Positions 361 through 5,045 of a DNA stretch of 5,140 nt are shown in pieces. The stretch is from a virus (Duplodnaviria > Heunggongvirae > Uroviricota > Caudoviricetes): positions 1 through 5,140 of IMG/VR virus record IMGVR_UViG_2698536640_000007; one strand, 5' to 3'. Made by a program: the position numbers and the translations under genes. The notes beneath the pieces were generated by a model. The model saw only the letters and a program-made list of their open reading frames with translations, was not told the origin of the DNA and did no database searches. The number at the start of each line of letters is the position of its first letter. The stretch's first letter is position 1.

Positions 361-1410
361 TTACCCAAGCACGCCAGTTGCAAAGGCGTGATCAAGAAAA
401 CGAAAAATTAAATCAACCTGAGAACCATGCTTTTCTTCGAACGCCAGCGGATCCGCATGAAGCTCGTTGTGATGCTCCCGACACAGCGGTAGCGTGAAAA
501 TATCGTGAGATTTTGTCCCCATTCCGCCCTGACCATGACCAATCAGGTGATGGGGATCGTCGGCTGGCTTACCACAACACGCACACGGCTGTGTCTTCAC
601 CCAGCGTTTGTATTTCTCGTTAACCCAGCGGCGACGTTTAGGTCGTTTCATGAAAGATTCCGGAGACTCAGGATCAACGGCAATGCTGACCACCGTCTTT
701 TCCTGTGGTGAGTTCTGTTGCTGGTGGGCGTGAGGCAGCGGCGCAAGATTTTTTGTGCGCTGTTTCAGGATGCTGGTGGCGGTCTGCTCTCCCGGCACGA
801 TGTCGCTCTCGCGGTATACTGAGCGAATTTTTTCCGCACGTAACCCCAGAGAACGACGTAATGCTGCCTCTGGTAGCGCGTCCGCCACCTGATTGCAGAC
901 CGCCCACCAGGATAATTCAGCCAGCGATAATTCCCGCTCCTGCGTGCCATTCATTGCATGGCGTATGACGTCAATCATCCATGCTGACAAGTTTTGATGA
1001 GCAAGTTGCTCGAGTGATTCGGATGTCTGGTCACGCAGCTGGTTGTCGCAGTGCCAGCACAACACCATTGCGCCGGTACCATAACGGTGAATAACGGTTT
1101 CGCTGTGATGATAATCGCCGTGTGGCCACTGGCAGGATTTAATATGGCGCAACAGCCAGTCAGACAATGCACCAGCACCACCAGCAGCACGAATTACCCG
1201 TGCGTTACTGAAAAACGGCAGCAATGTTTTGTCTTCCACCAGCGGCTGGCGAACGGCAGGAACGACCCCGGACGGCAGATTACGCATGCTTTTCGGTTCC
1301 GGCTCCACCAGTACCCGGGTATTGTGGAATATAGGCATGGATTCACGGCCTGGCTTAAGGACCACCAGCCCGAGTTCCGGAACCAGTACAGGTCGAAGTA
1401 ATACCCGCAC
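361..1410 (-). CDS. ydfU: YdfU-like DUF968 prophage protein with C-terminal Cys/His HNH-like zinc-finger motif (NinG-position gene)
   Basis: 349-aa ORF from the track. Start is GTG at 1410-1408, preceded by GGAGGT (1421-1416); the upstream gene's TAA stop (1414-1412) sits inside this SD. C-terminus carries CACCGKPADDPHHLIGHG...CREHHNELH. Length and position next to rusA match E. coli Qin prophage YdfU as recalled. Confidence 0.8.
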   Translation of the reverse strand: MRVLLRPVLVPELGLVVLKPGRESMPIFHNTRVLVEPEPKSMRNLPSGVVPAVRQPLVEDKTLLPFFSNARVIRAAGGAGALSDWLLRHIKSCQWPHGDYHHSETVIHRYGTGAMVLCWHCDNQLRDQTSESLEQLAHQNLSAWMIDVIRHAMNGTQERELSLAELSWWAVCNQVADALPEAALRRSLGLRAEKIRSVYRESDIVPGEQTATSILKQRTKNLAPLPHAHQQQNSPQEKTVVSIAVDPESPESFMKRPKRRRWVNEKYKRWVKTQPCACCGKPADDPHHLIGHGQGGMGTKSHDIFTLPLCREHHNELHADPLAFEEKHGSQVDLIFRFLDHAFATGVLG

Positions 1411-1411
1411 G

Positions 1412-1690
1412 TTACCTCCAGATGCGTTGCTGGAATGTGCGGGACGGACGCGGTGGGCGTTCAGAGTAAGGAAGCCTGACGGAGATTATCCAGTGACGAT
1501 AATCGAGGCTGAGGGTTTTCCTAAACTCATACCCACGTCTGCGGTAGTTCTGAATCAGCCATTCGGCCTGTTCTTCAGTGCATGGGGCGTGCTGGAACCA
1601 GTCAGATTTGAATGCATGAGAACGCCGCCCGTGCCTGCTGGCAAAGACGGCTGAATTATCAGAATTGTATAATTTGGTATCGTGCGCCAT
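1412..1690 (-). CDS. Hypothetical phage protein, 92 aa (MAHDTKLYNSDNSAVF...)
   Basis: The track ORF 1412..1771 begins at a TTG inside the U-tract of an intrinsic terminator; the only in-frame ATG is at 1690-1688. Stop TAA at 1414-1412 abuts the ydfU-like start. The SD is weak (AGAGA), so the exact start is uncertain. Confidence 0.55.
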   Translation of the reverse strand: MAHDTKLYNSDNSAVFASRHGRRSHAFKSDWFQHAPCTEEQAEWLIQNYRRRGYEFRKTLSLDYRHWIISVRLPYSERPPRPSRTFQQRIWR

Positions 1691-1758
1691 CGGTTGTCTC
1701 TGCTGGCGCAGCAGGTGCCAGTTGTTCAGGCTGGCATGCGAATTGTAAACCAGAATGC

Positions 1759-1790
1759 CAGGAAAAAACAAAACCCGCCGAAGCGGGTTA
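1759..1790 (-). terminator. Rho-independent terminator of the hok transcript (minus strand)
   Basis: On the minus strand: AACCCGC-UUCG-GCGGGUU (7-bp GC-rich stem 1772-1778/1783-1789, 4-nt loop) followed by UUUUGUUUUUUCC. The plus-strand reading has no T-tract, so it is unidirectional. Confidence 0.7.
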
Positions 1791-1791
1791 A

Positions 1792-1808
1792 GTGCGGGTG
1801 CGTTGAGG
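1792..1808 (-). promoter_or_regulatory. fbi-like 3' fold-back element of hok mRNA, complementary to the transcript 5' end
   Basis: Plus 1792-1808 GTGCGGGTGCGTTGAGG is near-identical to the reverse complement of plus 2173-2188 (CTGCGGGTGCTTGAGG): 15 matching positions with one single-base bulge, about 370 nt apart on the same transcript. Confidence 0.6.
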
Positions 1809-1857
1809 ATGCCTGACTCATCAGAGGTGGCGAGGGATTTCTCCCTCGCCAGGTCTC

Positions 1858-2013
1858 TTACTCCTCAGGTTCGTAAGCTGTGAAGACAGCGACCTCCGTC
1901 TGGCCGGTTCGGATTCGTACCTCGCAGAGGTCTTTCCTCGTTACCAGTGCCGTCACAATGACGGTAATACAGATGACGATCAGGGCGATTAACATCGCCT
2001 TTTGCTGCTTCAT
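1858..2013 (-). CDS. hokD: Hok/Gef family type I toxin, 51 aa (MKQQKAMLIALIVICITVIVTALVTRKDLCEVRIRTGQTEVAVFTAYEPEE)
   Basis: Hand translation of the minus strand from ATG 2013-2011 to TAA 1860-1858. SD AAGGAG lies 9 nt upstream. Single transmembrane helix followed by the conserved RKDLCEV...TEVAVF...YE periplasmic tail of Hok/Gef proteins; closest in memory to HokD/RelF and HokC. Absent from the ORF track because it is below the length cut-off. Confidence 0.85.
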   Translation of the reverse strand: MKQQKAMLIALIVICITVIVTALVTRKDLCEVRIRTGQTEVAVFTAYEPEE

Positions 2014-2071
2014 AGCCTGCTTCTCCTTGACCTTTCGGTCCGTAAGAGGCTAACCTACGTGTGTAGAGCAT
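1865..2071 (-). CDS. mok: Mok-like overlapping reading frame (modulator of killing), 68 aa
   Basis: Track ORF that starts 58 nt upstream of hok and overlaps almost all of it in another frame, as mok does in the R1 hok/sok locus. GAGG lies 9 nt upstream of its ATG. Confidence 0.55.
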   Translation of the reverse strand: MLYTRRLASYGPKGQGEAGYEAAKGDVNRPDRHLYYRHCDGTGNEERPLRGTNPNRPDGGRCLHSLRT

Positions 2072-2130
2072 AGATATGGCCTCAGATTAATGTTAAGCGT
2101 CTTGCCGGACGCGTAATGTTAACTGGGGCT
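2060..2130 (+). ncRNA. sok: Predicted Sok-like antisense RNA (coordinates approximate)
   Basis: Inferred from hok/sok architecture: the antisense RNA should be complementary to the hok mRNA leader around the mok start. A candidate plus-strand promoter is TTGACC (2027-2032), 18-nt spacer, TAACCT (2051-2056). I could not define a clear 3' terminator. Confidence 0.3.
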
Positions 2131-2172
2131 TTTCTCTATCTGCCTTTTGGTGTTCATGCCTGAGACAGATAG

Positions 2173-2196
2173 CCTCAAGCACCCGCAGCGATTTTA
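2173..2196 (-). promoter_or_regulatory. hok mRNA 5' end (tac-like element) with candidate -10 hexamer
   Basis: Minus-strand TAAAAT (2196-2191) followed by GCGGGUGCUUGAGGCUAUCUGUCUCA, which resembles the R1 hok mRNA 5' end as recalled and pairs with 1792-1808. The predicted transcription start is about 2184-2186. Confidence 0.45.
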
Positions 2197-2227
2197 CAGA
2201 AATAAGTTATTATTTTCTATCTCACCC

Positions 2228-2254
2228 TTCACTTATCTCATTCCTAGCTATACT
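2228..2254 (+). promoter_or_regulatory. Candidate sigma70 promoter for the 57-aa plus-strand ORF
   Basis: TTCACT (2228-2233), 15-nt spacer, TATACT (2249-2254), about 30 nt upstream of the ORF at 2286. The spacer is short, so this is tentative. Confidence 0.3.
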
Positions 2255-2285
2255 CATCGTTCACACAACATTAAAGGGCATAAAA

Positions 2286-2459
2286 ATGACCGTTCATGGT
2301 ATACAGGAAGGCAGTATTGTTAACTTACGTGAAAAAGATGGGGAATGGCTTGTAGTACAAACTATTAAAAACGACGACCTTACATATCAACTCCGAAATA
2401 CAGATACCAACGAAGAAGTAAACGTCGCACTTCAGGACATTATCTCCCCAAATAAATAA
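2286..2459 (+). CDS. Hypothetical small protein, 57 aa (MTVHGIQEGSIVNLREKDGEWLVVQTIKNDDLTYQLRNTDTNEEVNVALQDIISPNK)
   Basis: ATG at 2286 with SD AAGGG 7 nt upstream and TAA stop at 2457-2459. It is the only plausible plus-strand gene in the window, divergent from hok and convergent with the 114-aa gene. No confident family assignment. Confidence 0.5.
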   Translation: MTVHGIQEGSIVNLREKDGEWLVVQTIKNDDLTYQLRNTDTNEEVNVALQDIISPNK

Positions 2460-2468
2460 TCAAATCAG

Positions 2469-2489
2469 CGGGGCGCACGATACCCCGCA
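2469..2489. terminator. Hairpin between convergent genes (possible terminator)
   Basis: GCGGGG-CGCACGATA-CCCCGC, a 6-bp GC stem. On the minus strand it is followed by the U-rich stretch UGAUUUGAUUAUUUAUUU; on the plus strand the downstream sequence is not T-rich. Confidence 0.3.
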
Positions 2490-2580
2490 CTATTCCACTT
2501 ATCACCCCAGCGGCAAATCGAATACACCACCAGCGCCACCGCCATTGCAATTCCTACCGTTGTTAATGCTTCAGGCCAGG

Positions 2581-2925
2581 TCATCGTAAAATATCCTCCA
2601 CGCTTATCAGTCCGTTCCGCTCCAGATAACTCATCGCCTTATCCGGTAATTTGCAGTCTGGCTTCGCTTTCCTCAGTTGCCAGGTTAACTGCTTTACCAG
2701 CATGGTTAACTCATCGACCAGACGCTGATATCCCACTGGTTTGTATTCATGCAATTTACCGGCTGGCTCTGCTGCCAGCGATACCAGTGCGATTTCCAGA
2801 ACAGCAATATCCATCTTATATGTGCGGATGATGTCATGGTCGATTGTGCCCGGTATGCACAGTCTCTGTGCTTCAATAGTCTCCTCTGCGTGAGCTATTA
2901 ACTGCTCTCTGGTAAAAGTCGTCAT
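2581..2925 (-). CDS. Hypothetical protein, 114 aa, translationally coupled to the upstream HNH endonuclease gene
   Basis: Track ORF. Its ATG (2925-2923) overlaps the HNH gene's TGA (2924-2922) as ATGA; SD AAGGGG lies 7 nt upstream. No family recognised. Confidence 0.7.
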
Positions 2926-3287
2926 GCCGTAGCCCCTTCTTGATATTTTTCAAACCAGAACACAACCGGGTCAGATTTCATTTCAACCAATCCCATACGA
3001 ACCAGCGCTTTGCCTTTCCCGGACGCAAGGAATTCACGACGACCATCACTGATAATTCGCCGATAATCTTCCAGACTACTGCAATGCTTGTGCAGATTGC
3101 ATGGGTGGCATGCCGGAACCATGTTGGATATATCGTCACGTTCCTGGTGAAGCATATTTCCATTAAAACGAATGACCGGTTTTACATGGTCTGCATGCCA
3201 CTTTTCGCCAAGTTCGCAGCCGCAATAAGCACAGCGACCACCGAACTTCATGCGCAGTTCTGCGCGTTGTTTTTTCGTCAGTGCCAT
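2922..3287 (-). CDS. HNH endonuclease, 121 aa
   Basis: Start moved to the internal ATG at 3287-3285, which has SD AAGGAAA 8 nt upstream; the track's longer ORF 2922..3377 runs into the preceding gene. Protein [38 protein letters not shown]...[14 protein letters not shown] carries the CxxC...HxxH...CxxC...H pattern of HNH nucleases. Confidence 0.85.
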
Positions 3288-3288
3288 A

Positions 3289-3519
3289 TCAGCTTTCCTT
3301 ATACGGATTAATTTTATTGTGCAGTGTGTTGAATGACGCACATACCACGTCGTTATACAATTCAATAACTGGCTCAATTATTTTTCCGATTATCCAGACT
3401 AGGATTAACGGGGATATCGGTATCATCAACCCCATCCGTCGGTTGCTGAGTCTCACCCACTGCCAGACGCCAGGAGCGTTTCTACGAACTAACAGAATCT
3501 TTGCTTTACGGTTTTTCAT
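3289..3519 (-). CDS. Hypothetical small protein, 76 aa, basic N-terminus and hydrophobic core (possible membrane protein)
   Basis: ATG at 3519-3517 with a strong SD (AGGAGA, 8-nt spacer). Stop TGA at 3291-3289 is 1 nt from the HNH start. The 3' half lies in AT-rich DNA, so it is less certain as a coding region. Confidence 0.45.
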   Translation of the reverse strand: MKNRKAKILLVRRNAPGVWQWVRLSNRRMGLMIPISPLILVWIIGKIIEPVIELYNDVVCASFNTLHNKINPYKES

Positions 3520-3691
3520 CGCTTTGCTCTCCTGCGTCTCTTTGCTGCTCGTCGTGCCGCTGCAATACCGGTATGGCGGCGCTTTGGTGCCGGGATGATG
3601 TTGTCAGCCATCAGGACATGTGGCTTTGCAATTAGCGCAGAAGCCCAAAAACGAGTCGGGTACGGTAACAAGCCGATACATGCCACACGCA

Positions 3692-4477
3692 TTACTCACC
3701 TCCTTTGATGCGAATGCCAGCAGCGCGTGGCACATTAACTTCCACGATGCGCACTGTTGGTTTGTACATCTCAATCGCTGTCAGCCAGTCAGCTCCTGTC
3801 ATGCGCTTTTCCGCATCGCCATTAGTCCACTTAACCGGTACACCAATAGACTTCATCGCGATTTCTATTTCCCCGGCGATGGCGCTTTTTCCGCAACCAG
3901 TAAAACCAGATACAACGACAAGAACTTCGCCTTTGGCTGGTTTTATTTCCCGTGCTTCCTGCCCTGATTTGCGCAGCAAAACAGCGTACTTTAATGCGTC
4001 CTGGGCTTTCTGAAATTTCAGTGCATAGTCAGTGGCGATTTTCTCCAGTTCAGCAATACGCTTACTCCCATCCGAGATAACACCTTCGTAATACTCACGC
4101 TGCTCGTTGAGTTTTGATTTTGTCTCCTCAAGCTCAACTCTCAGCTTCCCAACCGTAAGCGCAATATCCTCGTTCTCCTGGTCGCGGCGTTTGATGTATT
4201 GCTGGTTTCTTTCCCGTTCATCCAGTAGCGCCAGTACGGTAGCTGGGTTAGCATCTGCTATAAATTCAGCGTTTGCATAAGCCTGAGCATCTGATTCAAT
4301 CAGGCAGTTAACATGACATTCGGCAATCACGCCACCGGGTTCTCCTTTCCATTTTTGACAAACAAAAACTCCTGTTAAATTGCCGTGCTGGTTAACAGAT
4401 GTATGCCCTACGATGTAGCTTCCTTTAGTTGCTTTCTCTGCCTTTTCACGCAGTGCCTGATAGTTAATCTCGCTCAC
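3692..4477 (-). CDS. Ead/Ea22-like prophage protein, 261 aa, with central coiled-coil
   Basis: GTG start at 4477-4475 with SD GGAGG 7 nt upstream, overlapping the upstream TGA as GTGA. N-terminal ...QALREKAEKATKG...AEFIADANPATVLALLDERE... resembles Ea22-family proteins as recalled. The middle is rich in heptad-like charged residues. Confidence 0.6.
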   Translation of the reverse strand: MSEINYQALREKAEKATKGSYIVGHTSVNQHGNLTGVFVCQKWKGEPGGVIAECHVNCLIESDAQAYANAEFIADANPATVLALLDERERNQQYIKRRDQENEDIALTVGKLRVELEETKSKLNEQREYYEGVISDGSKRIAELEKIATDYALKFQKAQDALKYAVLLRKSGQEAREIKPAKGEVLVVVSGFTGCGKSAIAGEIEIAMKSIGVPVKWTNGDAEKRMTGADWLTAIEMYKPTVRIVEVNVPRAAGIRIKGGE

Positions 4478-4698
4478 TCTTCATCCTCCAAGTCGGCAAC
4501 GGCGTCCATCACATCAGAACCGCGAATAACCTCAAAAGCACGGCAGGCCATTTGAAATACCAGTTGCTCTTGCGGGTGAGGAGACTCCCAATATTTGAAG
4601 CCTGGGCGATGCGTGTACCCCATCATTGAATAAAAATCACCAGCAAGCTTAATCGCGGCATCGACAAGCTCTCTGTTAGTCATTCTTTTTCCGCTCAC
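4474..4698 (-). CDS. Hypothetical small phage protein, 74 aa
   Basis: GTG start at 4698-4696 preceded by AGGAGG with a 6-nt spacer; overlaps the upstream TGA as GTGA. An in-frame ATG at 4683 is an alternative start (69 aa). Confidence 0.6.
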   Translation of the reverse strand: MSGKRMTNRELVDAAIKLAGDFYSMMGYTHRPGFKYWESPHPQEQLVFQMACRAFEVIRGSDVMDAVADLEDEE

Positions 4699-5045
4699 TG
4701 GTTGCCTCCTTTGCGAAGCTGGGCGGCTAACTCATCACATATGTGCGTCAAAGAACAAAGTTTGATTGATGGATGTTCGCGCATCATCTCTACCCCCTGC
4801 GCCCGCACTTCAGACAGGAAAGCATCGGTGGCTGGCATATTTCCTGTTGCCTTCATTGCCTCCAAAATAACCAGAACGCCATCTCGCCCAATCTCCTCGC
4901 AGATAACCTCGGTGCTGTCGCCAACAACATCGCAAAATGCCTGAACTGCTTTACGAGCCAGCGCATCTTCCGCCCTGTGAAACGCCTCGCGGTTGAAATT
5001 TTCATATCCCGTCATTGGACCGGCAATATAAACTCTCACCCTCAC
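4695..5045 (-). CDS. DUF4406-like (nucleoside 2-deoxyribosyltransferase-like fold) protein, 116 aa
   Basis: GTG start at 5045-5043 preceded by GGAGGT with a 6-nt spacer. N-terminal MRVRVYIAGPMTGYENFN matches the YIAGPMTG signature I associate with DUF4406/NDT-like proteins; the rest of the protein is not recognisably conserved. Confidence 0.5.
   Translation of the reverse strand: MRVRVYIAGPMTGYENFNREAFHRAEDALARKAVQAFCDVVGDSTEVICEEIGRDGVLVILEAMKATGNMPATDAFLSEVRAQGVEMMREHPSIKLCSLTHICDELAAQLRKGGNQ

Follow-up and report, generated by a model that had tools for sequence, protein, structure and literature searches.

A probable complete hok/mok/sok cassette with tac/fbi pairing of its mRNA ends in a lambdoid prophage

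The pairing of the two ends of hok mRNA through the elements tac and fbi was described in the 1990s for plasmid R1 and its relatives, and both this mechanism and the covariation of the two elements across the hok family are textbook knowledge. In the hok/sok (parB) locus of R1, pairing of the 5′ end with the 3′ end blocks translation and antisense binding until the 3′ end has been trimmed; the model as summarised comprises tac/fbi, ucb, dcb and a metastable hairpin, and a role for a hairpin in the 3′ UTR has also been described (PMC9841398). Among lambdoid prophages, the Stx2 phages 933W and VT2-Sakai (Sp5) carry hokW-mokW-sokW. There, experiments show that hokW-sokW works as a toxin/antitoxin pair and depends on RNase III and Hfq, and that Sp5 releases half as many phages after mitomycin C once the pair is lost; truncated hokW RNAs were also observed, which the study left uncharacterised (PMC8621323). 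Three further systems, aapA3/IsoA3 of Helicobacter pylori and dinQ and tisB of Escherichia coli, share with hok a primary transcript kept from translation by sequestering structures, activation by ribonucleolytic trimming and the use of co-transcriptional metastable hairpins against premature translation (PMC9841398; PMC5066626), but their sequences and toxins are unrelated and they are without tac/fbi, ucb/dcb and the mok leader ORF. Activation of dinQ and tisB, moreover, proceeds by 5′ rather than 3′ processing.

Here we analysed a 5,140-nt stretch of viral DNA (the window) in which two distant segments are complementary. These segments are the known tac/fbi end pairing that folds the mRNA of the Hok membrane toxin shut, in a cassette that is apparently intact. 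In our judgement positions 2219–1763 (−) very probably make up a type I toxin-antitoxin cassette, hok/mok/sok, that is complete, belongs to the hokD/hokW lineage and works by the tac/fbi lock proposed below; a lambdoid prophage carries it in its early-right (nin) region (Table 1). The window is a new copy of a known system and holds no new principle.

The cassette and its relatives

The Rfam model RF01794, which is named "sok" and describes the hok leader, matched positions 2184–2011 (−) over its whole length (model positions 1–157 of 157) with 109.5 bits (gathering score 59). The 51-aa Hok ORF covered the full 42-position Pfam model PF01848 (HOK_GEF) with 83.2 bits (cut-off 22; E = 9.7e-24), and its match to the NCBIfam Hok subfamily fell below the cut-off (48 vs 73). 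Translation of hok is probably coupled to the overlapping mok leader ORF. The neighbouring prophage genes (DUF968/YdfU, a rem-like ORF, HNH, Ea22-like and DUF4406) all lie on the (−) strand, and in related loci RusA and Q-like genes come next. We found close copies of the cassette in 4955 of 5426 complete E. coli genomes, where most are annotated hokD, as are the window's close homologues in RefSeq, and also in many Stx and other lambdoid phages, where they are annotated hokW/mokW/sokW. The hok 3′ UTR additionally resembled isrK in Rfam (27.8 bits, gathering score 50). We rejected this identity as a generic hairpin-plus-terminator resemblance; the IsrK literature gives another origin and no hok link.

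On the opposite strand, the sokW annotation of VT2-Sakai (AP000422) maps to 2063–2133 with 65 of 71 positions identical, and the putative Sok RNA folds with −31.8 kcal/mol (z = −4.8). The candidate Sok promoter lies where sokW and R1 sok have their −10, and across 27 aligned loci the columns complementary to it (AGCCUCUUAC...CAAGGAG) are mostly invariant or at least 90% conserved. A consensus promoter scan made no call for this promoter, which has a weak −10 and an 18-nt spacer.

When set against R1, the window shows the same predicted arrangement. From the promoter it leads through the 5′-terminal tac, the metastable hairpin, ucb and the putative Sok target to the mok Shine-Dalgarno (SD) sequence and mok itself; dcb with the candidate Sok promoter comes next, then hok, the 3′ hairpin, fbi and the terminator. 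An R1-type locus (L064) aligns with the window transcript along the full length, and the differences between the two are quantitative. The Hok proteins are only ~41% identical, and tac reads GGCGCUUGAGGC in R1 and GGGUGCUUGAGG in the window, where it is one nucleotide longer at the 5′ end (an extra G). The helix of the window, with 12 bp and one bulge, is longer and more stable than the R1 type, in which 7 bp and a mismatch are followed by a few more bp. Finally, the leader hairpin of the window is without the ~16-nt insertion present in R1, and the replicon is a prophage rather than a plasmid.

The hokW phages have 91.5% DNA identity to the window from the −10 box to just past fbi, and identity reaches 100% in tac, fbi, ucb, dcb and the Sok-target hairpin, both cassettes being housed in lambdoid prophages. 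The two toxins differ at the C-terminus (…VFTAYEPEE in the window, …VFVDYESEK in HokW), and an extra T at position 2030 means that mok and hok, which share a frame in VT2-Sakai, are out of frame in the window. Past fbi the sequences are unrelated, terminator included, and the neighbouring genes differ, with rem-like and DUF968/ydfU genes downstream in the window. It is hokD (relF) of the E. coli K-12 Qin prophage that has the same 3′ UTR with fbi and terminator and the same downstream rem/ydfU context, and its Hok differs from that of the window by one residue (I16 for L). However, K-12-type hokD lies after relBE without the entire 5′ leader (promoter, tac, ucb, mok start and Sok), and matches to it span query positions 214–477 only (H24–H27). 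Whereas fbi is an orphan in K-12-type copies, the window has both partners; this prophage appears to carry a structurally complete hok/sok module, unlike the relic of K-12 hokD type.

Table 1. Positions of the predicted and annotated elements of the hok/mok/sok cassette in the window
Feature	Position	Strand	Description	Basis
hok promoter, sigma-70-like	2191–2219	(−)	−35 TAGAAA (2219–2214), 17-nt spacer, −10 TAAAAT (2196–2191)	Promoter scan
Predicted full-length hok mRNA	1763–2184	(−)	422 nt, +1 G2184, 3′ end in U-tract past terminator	Promoter and terminator scans, Rfam model start at 2184, fold
tac (translational activator element)	2173–2184	(−)	GGGUGCUUGAGG, 5′-terminal 12 nt	MFE and centroid pairing with fbi, covariation, identity in hokW
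tac partner in co-transcriptional metastable 5′ hairpin	2156–2166	(−)	nt 19–29, pairing with nt 3–13	Folds of first 30 and 45 nt
ucb / anti-SD	2125–2131	(−)	AAGCCCC, transcript nt 54–60; mok SD partner when closed, tac partner when open	
mok SD	2083–2080	(−)	GAGG, 8 nt upstream of mok	Position and pairing in fold
mok reading frame	1865–2071	(−)	68 codons, overlaps hok out of frame	ORF list
dcb core	2046–2050	(−)	GCCUC, pairs with mok SD region in open truncated form	Constrained fold
hok toxin gene	1858–2013	(−)	51 aa, MKQQKAMLIALIVICITVIVTALVTRKDLCEVRIRTGQTEVAVFTAYEPEE	ORF, Pfam PF01848; 98% identity to HokD-annotated proteins
G+C-rich 3′-UTR hairpin	1829–1850	(−)	GGCGAGGGAG AAAU CCCUCGCC	Fold, inverted-repeat list (I3); compensatory changes across 27 loci
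fbi (fold-back inhibitory element)	1796–1808	(−)	CCUCAAcGCACCC, C1802 bulged, 49–61 nt past hok stop codon	Duplex and fold
Intrinsic terminator	1763–1789	(−)	AACCCGC UUCG GCGGGUU and U-tract (stem-loop 1789–1772)	Terminator scan
Putative Sok antisense RNA	2063–2133	(+)	~71 nt; 5′ single-stranded tail over mok start, long hairpin, U-rich end	Collinear with annotated sokW
Candidate Sok promoter	2027–2056	(+)	−35 TTGACC (2027–2032), 18-nt spacer, −10 TAACCT (2051–2056)	Read from sequence

Pairing and predicted folding of the hok transcript

A preliminary description of this DNA had proposed that 2173–2188 and 1792–1808, about 370 nt apart, pair over 15 bp with one bulged base, and that the hok transcript begins at 2188. 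RNAduplex applied to (−)-strand segments 2188–2173 (CUGCGGGUGCUUGAGG) and 1808–1792 (CCUCAACGCACCCGCAC) did give a 15-bp duplex of −27.4 kcal/mol in which C1802 alone bulges out, joining 2173–2187 with 1793–1808 across 365 nt. The proposed start and the three outermost pairs fared less well. The 5′ end of hok mRNA is most likely G2184: the −10 box TAAAAT ends 6 nt ahead of it, and 25 of the 26 homologous haplotypes introduced below have a TAnnnT hexamer at the same 6-nt distance ahead of the G that opens tac. Pairs 2185–2187 with 1793–1795 fall upstream of this predicted +1 and outside the predicted transcript, and they are not conserved. Positions −1, −2 and −3 can pair with bases 3′ of fbi in 8/26, 11/26 and 18/26 haplotypes, respectively, the pairing at −3 being mostly G-U and adjoining U-rich sequence. 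As predicted from the sequences, the conserved helix is therefore one of 12 bp with one bulge, 2184–2173 with 1808–1796, starting at the predicted +1. The helix begins at +1 in R1 as well, where hok mRNA has the 5′ end GGCGCUUGAGG, in line with the R1-type locus L064. The three extra pairs would be either a lineage-specific coincidence or relevant only to a read-through RNA.

In the window sequence taken by itself, the best duplex of the 16-mer with the rest of the transcript reached −27.5 kcal/mol, against −18.0 ± 2.1 kcal/mol in 1000 dinucleotide shuffles (0/1000 as good), and for the 12-mer from the predicted +1 the corresponding values were −21.1 and −14.3 ± 1.9 kcal/mol, an energy that 4 of 1000 shuffles equalled. 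Ungapped, the tac/fbi inverted repeat is a 9-mer only (I18), one of 20 comparable pairs in the 5.1-kb window. The single-sequence signal is moderate and the decisive evidence is comparative, so that the case for tac/fbi rests on context and comparison. The shuffles that match the 12-mer, the shortness of the ungapped repeat and the two other partners that tac does have would all suit a chance complementarity of two G+C-rich segments, with the 5′ end kept for its tac-ucb and metastable pairings and the 3′ segment kept as a terminator-proximal or processing signal; the comparison of loci given below bears directly on this reading. Another inverted repeat (I6, 1403–1416 with 1786–1799) suggested that fbi might have a further partner where the DUF968 gene begins, but it was attributed to chance, the shared core being only 7–8 nt. 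The 10-mer TGCGGGTGCT had no other occurrence within the window, and the 12-mer was absent from all loci examined.

The predicted 422-nt RNA (2184–1763) has an MFE of −174.8 kcal/mol (z = −7.7 vs shuffles), and in both the MFE and the centroid fold nt 1–12 are paired with nt 377–389 in a helix that closes the molecule, leaving tac a probability of 0.01 of being unpaired. The mok SD, GAGG, has the CCCC of ucb (nt 57–60) as its partner in this closed MFE form. A nascent RNA of 30–45 nt is predicted to form a metastable hairpin that sequesters tac (−16.9 kcal/mol), and in folds of 60–110 nt the tac-ucb stem is preferred, a stem that the Rfam consensus also contains. Forcing fbi to be single-stranded cost 12.1 kcal/mol. 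The unconstrained MFE of the 3′-truncated RNA did not yield the open translatable form and kept both the 5′ metastable hairpin and the ucb-SD pairing, and we therefore compared constrained energies. Relative to the MFE, the tac-ucb open form lies at +12.8 kcal/mol in the full-length RNA and at +2.6 to +4.1 kcal/mol with fbi and the terminator removed; because the open truncated form is still less stable by this amount, thermodynamic prediction alone does not reproduce activation. In the fbi-less open form, under constraint, the mok SD switches to pairing with dcb. As far as such modelling goes, the predicted folds reproduce the R1 model element for element.

In the following scheme, processing, the kinetics of refolding and the biological consequences are carried over from the R1 paradigm. 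Transcription of hok mRNA would start at G2184, and during synthesis tac would be held in the local metastable hairpin. Once the 3′ UTR has been made, tac would pair with fbi over 12 bp and a bulge and the ~420-nt RNA would become closed and circle-like, with ucb free to sequester the mok SD. In this closed form neither mok nor the translationally coupled hok would be translated, and Sok binding would be disfavoured. Slow 3′ exonucleolytic trimming to the stable 3′-UTR hairpin, the expected protective 3′ end of processed (truncated) hok mRNA, would then remove fbi, upon which tac would pair with ucb and the mok SD region with dcb. The opened RNA would be both translatable and a target of antisense Sok, which would normally trigger its decay, and Hok would be produced only once the unstable Sok is no longer replenished.

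Covariation of tac and fbi across genera and plasmids

We collected 60 Hok-encoding loci from one-genome-per-species contigs and nine plasmid loci and, at every locus with an intact leader, sought the best partner of the first 12 nt up to 110 nt past the hok stop, without reference to the window. A 230-nt search range had placed the fbi of R1-type plasmids beyond the transcript; the 110-nt limit recovered the published CUGAAGCGCC site. We obtained 26 distinct tac/fbi haplotypes, which come from at least eight genera and plasmids and all keep the helix. The two segments co-vary across Escherichia, Kluyvera, Photorhabdus, Pantoea, Erwinia, Citrobacter and Vibrio/IncF plasmid loci. In 25 of the 26, the partner of tac lies 44–60 nt past the hok stop with energies of −16.7 to −25.0 kcal/mol. 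The exception is an intron-disrupted locus (L066) with its partner at 71 nt and −13.5 kcal/mol.

At several positions, substitutions within the helix were matched on the other side. At position 4, 14 haplotypes have U-A and six (Photorhabdus, Pantoea) have C-G, with two U-G intermediates and one C/A mismatch. At position 12, 14 haplotypes have G-C and seven have A-U, the A-U occurring on both the U-A and the C-G position-4 backgrounds. Position 11 is A-U in Citrobacter youngae (L051). Positions 8–10 are all changed and all paired in the Vibrio plasmid (GGGUGCUCUUGG with CCAAcGAGCACCC), and in R1-type plasmids GGCGCUU pairs with AAGCGCC. Cognate tac/3′-UTR duplexes had a mean of −20.7 kcal/mol vs −17.9 kcal/mol for non-cognate ones. 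An independent MAFFT alignment of 27 full transcripts gave 86.8% standard pairs in the helix, against 33–59% (maximum 58.9%) when the register was slid by 1–3 columns; five helix pairs were changed on both sides, and the covariation score was 0.222 compared with 0.158 ± 0.012 after shuffling (0/500). MAFFT puts the unbulged (Photorhabdus-type) and bulged (Escherichia-type) fbi one column out in the inner half-helix, which depresses the formal pair counts at columns 446–451; the per-sequence duplexes gave the true partners. RNAalifold, unprompted, recovered the outer tac/fbi helix, the SD-dcb stem (columns 121–125 with 157–161) and the 3′ hairpin.

With correlated double-sided substitutions at positions 4, 8–10, 11 and 12, with cognate duplexes more stable on average than non-cognate ones, and with pairing dropping from 87% in a slid register, a chance complementarity of two independently kept segments becomes extremely improbable. 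Within Escherichia, tac/fbi is nearly invariant. The covariation signal comes largely from few clades (Photorhabdus, a Kluyvera-like group and the plasmids), and for this reason the number of independent covariation events is modest, about five. Judged by sequence comparison, the helix itself is under selection, as its covariation among genera and plasmids shows. What we demonstrate here comprises the sequence elements, a preference for fold-back on thermodynamic grounds and the tac-fbi covariation. The fold-back inhibition arrangement put forward in the preliminary description is supported by the Rfam and Pfam matches, by the 5′/3′ helix that closes the full transcript in both predicted folds, and by the compensatory conservation of the two segments among the haplotypes.

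The two segments might instead form an inverted repeat at the DNA level that bounds a mobile hok cassette, as a recombination or insertion footprint. Homology with hokW phages or P1-like plasmids extends from a point shortly before the −10 box to a few bases past fbi (query 44–455), and therefore both segments lie near the ends of the shared module. However, the start of the helix coincides exactly with the predicted +1 rather than with the edge of the homology, the bulge is tolerated at variable positions among the haplotypes, and the helix is the closing stem of the strongly non-random RNA fold described above. G-U wobbles, moreover, occur in 12 haplotype-cells of the 26 haplotypes, where the opposite strand would have C-A mismatches; they are tolerated only in hok-strand RNA, and the constraint therefore acts at the RNA level, on the hok strand. 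A DNA footprint is thus highly improbable as an account of the repeat, and we retain the RNA helix.

Integrity and possible role of the prophage locus

It had also been suggested that the locus is intact and regulated rather than a remnant, and in silico this is supported: all known regulatory elements appear to be present, the five named above (tac, fbi, ucb, dcb and the Sok-target hairpin) match those of the functional hokW-sokW pair (PMC8621323) without a change, and the window is free of the lesions seen in decayed copies. Those lesions are of several kinds. In one locus (L003) tac is mutated, with a duplex of −6.2 kcal/mol and an Rfam score of 48 bits, below the gathering score. Three others (L004, L028 and L069) have the relBE-hok arrangement of K-12 hokD, with no leader, no tac and no Rfam match. 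At L017 replacement of the 3′ flank has removed fbi, at L066 a group II intron follows directly after hok, and at L049, L050, L057 and L059 hok is frameshifted. An intact structure does not prove biological activity, and by likeness to hokW-sokW we would expect Hok to be toxic and Sok to neutralise it at the window locus. Since mok, Sok and the UTR elements are usually missing from annotations, their placement here has annotation value, and it also guides the choice of prophage hok loci for functional study.

Although the pairing is real, the cassette could be something other than an active killer of the plasmid type: a silent or otherwise used prophage module, for example an aid to lysis and phage release on induction as for hokW-sokW, whose conservation would stem from recent common ancestry and phage spread and not from selection for post-segregational killing. 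The cassette sits among prophage genes (Ea22-like, HNH, DUF968/YdfU), the near-invariance of tac/fbi within Escherichia fits recent ancestry, and earlier-tested chromosomal hok loci gave no post-segregational killing according to work cited in a preprint (bioRxiv 10.1101/2025.08.07.668861). This reading concerns biological role, however, and not the RNA mechanism; every regulatory element of the classic mechanism appears to be present, and the covariation across genera and plasmids points to selection on the helix. We regard an inactive killer as rather unlikely, though a reading to be taken seriously, and favour an intact cassette controlled by the tac/fbi lock.

A more doubtful idea, which we offer tentatively, is that in a lambdoid prophage the tac/fbi lock serves as a delay timer for prophage induction and not as a sensor of plasmid loss. 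If so, an inert pool of full-length hok mRNA would be activated and would escape Sok only after induction or host shut-off, and membrane damage by Hok would add to holin/endolysin lysis. Because hok and the early-right operon share one orientation, tac would come to lie in the interior of an antiterminated read-through RNA that extends beyond the hok terminator, and such read-through would yield a second hok RNA species under different regulation.

Predicted helix, reading frames and codon 47 in the hok transcript

Across an alignment of 27 full hok transcripts made with MAFFT (A1), RNAalifold predicted a conserved long-range helix between columns 192–202 and 321–335, one arm lying in the hok start-codon region and the other towards the 3′ end of its coding sequence. 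The helix carries compensatory changes, for example C-G/U-A in seven sequences and A-U/G-C in seven. This pairing probably helps to keep the hok initiation region occluded.

In the window the leader ORF mok and hok are read in different frames because of one additional T at 2030 on the (−) strand, GGTCAAGG. The same T stretches the spacer of the promoter for Sok, the antisense RNA, to 18 nt. Plasmid R1 resembles the window in having mok out of frame with hok, whereas mok extends hok in frame at its N-terminus in VT2-Sakai, hokC-type loci and some plasmid loci (L071, 426–638).

Codon 47 of the window hok is UAC (Tyr) followed by G. The resulting UACG is the motif that TadA recognizes and that reportedly permits A-to-I editing (Tyr to Cys) in the hokB, hokC, hokD and hokE mRNAs. 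Given that the C-terminal half of the window Hok has a single genomically encoded cysteine, C30, editing of Tyr47 could supply the second cysteine required for a disulfide bond.

Coordinates of features in the window
Feature	Position	Strand	Remark
Long-range helix arms	about 2015–2005 with about 1889–1878	−	RNAalifold on A1
Hok codon 47 and next base	1872–1875	−	UACG
IsrK-like match	1768–1849	−	sub-threshold Rfam match
Inverted repeat	1403–1416 / 1786–1799		14 nt
57-aa ORF	2286–2459	+	opposite strand, just upstream of hok promoter
Minus-strand ORFs	361–5045	−	DUF4406, Ea22-like, HNH, hok, rem-like (1690–1412), DUF968

The 3′ edge of the hok module

Homology shared with hokW phages and P1-like plasmids ends a few bases past fbi, the 3′-UTR partner of the 5′-terminal tac segment (window about 1786–1795; L071, L072). 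The terminator is not constant but varies by lineage, and no obvious hairpin terminator was seen in the aligned stretch of VT2-Sakai. From these sequence comparisons, the homology stop and the lineage-specific terminators place fbi at the 3′ edge of the exchangeable hok module.

The Salmonella Gifsy-1 sRNA IsrK gave a match spanning the 3′-UTR hairpin, fbi and the terminator (27.8 bits versus a gathering score of 50, E = 0.004). The IsrK literature holds no link to hok and derives IsrK differently, from an ASH-domain gene; the match probably reflects a generic hairpin-plus-terminator likeness. An inverted repeat (12/14 complementary) joins the fbi/terminator flank with the junction where the rem-like ORF stops and the DUF968 ORF starts. 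It does not stand out among the 20 pairs of this kind in the window, and its motif was not found in other loci; it likely arose by chance.

Natural loci with an apparently disturbed fold-back

Directly 3′ of hok in L066, a locus on Salmonella plasmid CP074641, lies the D1–D4 domain of a group II intron (713–860; RF02012, 111.6 bits). The hok ORF there is lengthened to 59 aa, and the usual 3′ UTR including fbi is displaced; the fold-back appears to have been disrupted naturally at this locus. Three further loci (L004, L028 and L069) carry a hokD-type hok immediately downstream of relBE, with no promoter, tac, ucb (anti-SD box), mok start, Sok or Rfam match; fbi survives in them as an orphan (CCUCAAcGCACCC or CUUCAUAGCACCC). 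The relBE-hok arrangement was also found on a Citrobacter plasmid, and is therefore not specific to K-12.

Prophage gene neighborhood

No Pfam family matched the 57-aa ORF, and in the closest E. coli genome (L061) nothing is annotated in the corresponding interval. Every sizeable ORF between 361 and 5045 lies on the minus strand, so hok runs in the same direction as the early-right/nin operon of the prophage. Read-through RNAs made under antitermination would carry tac internally and continue past the hok terminator.
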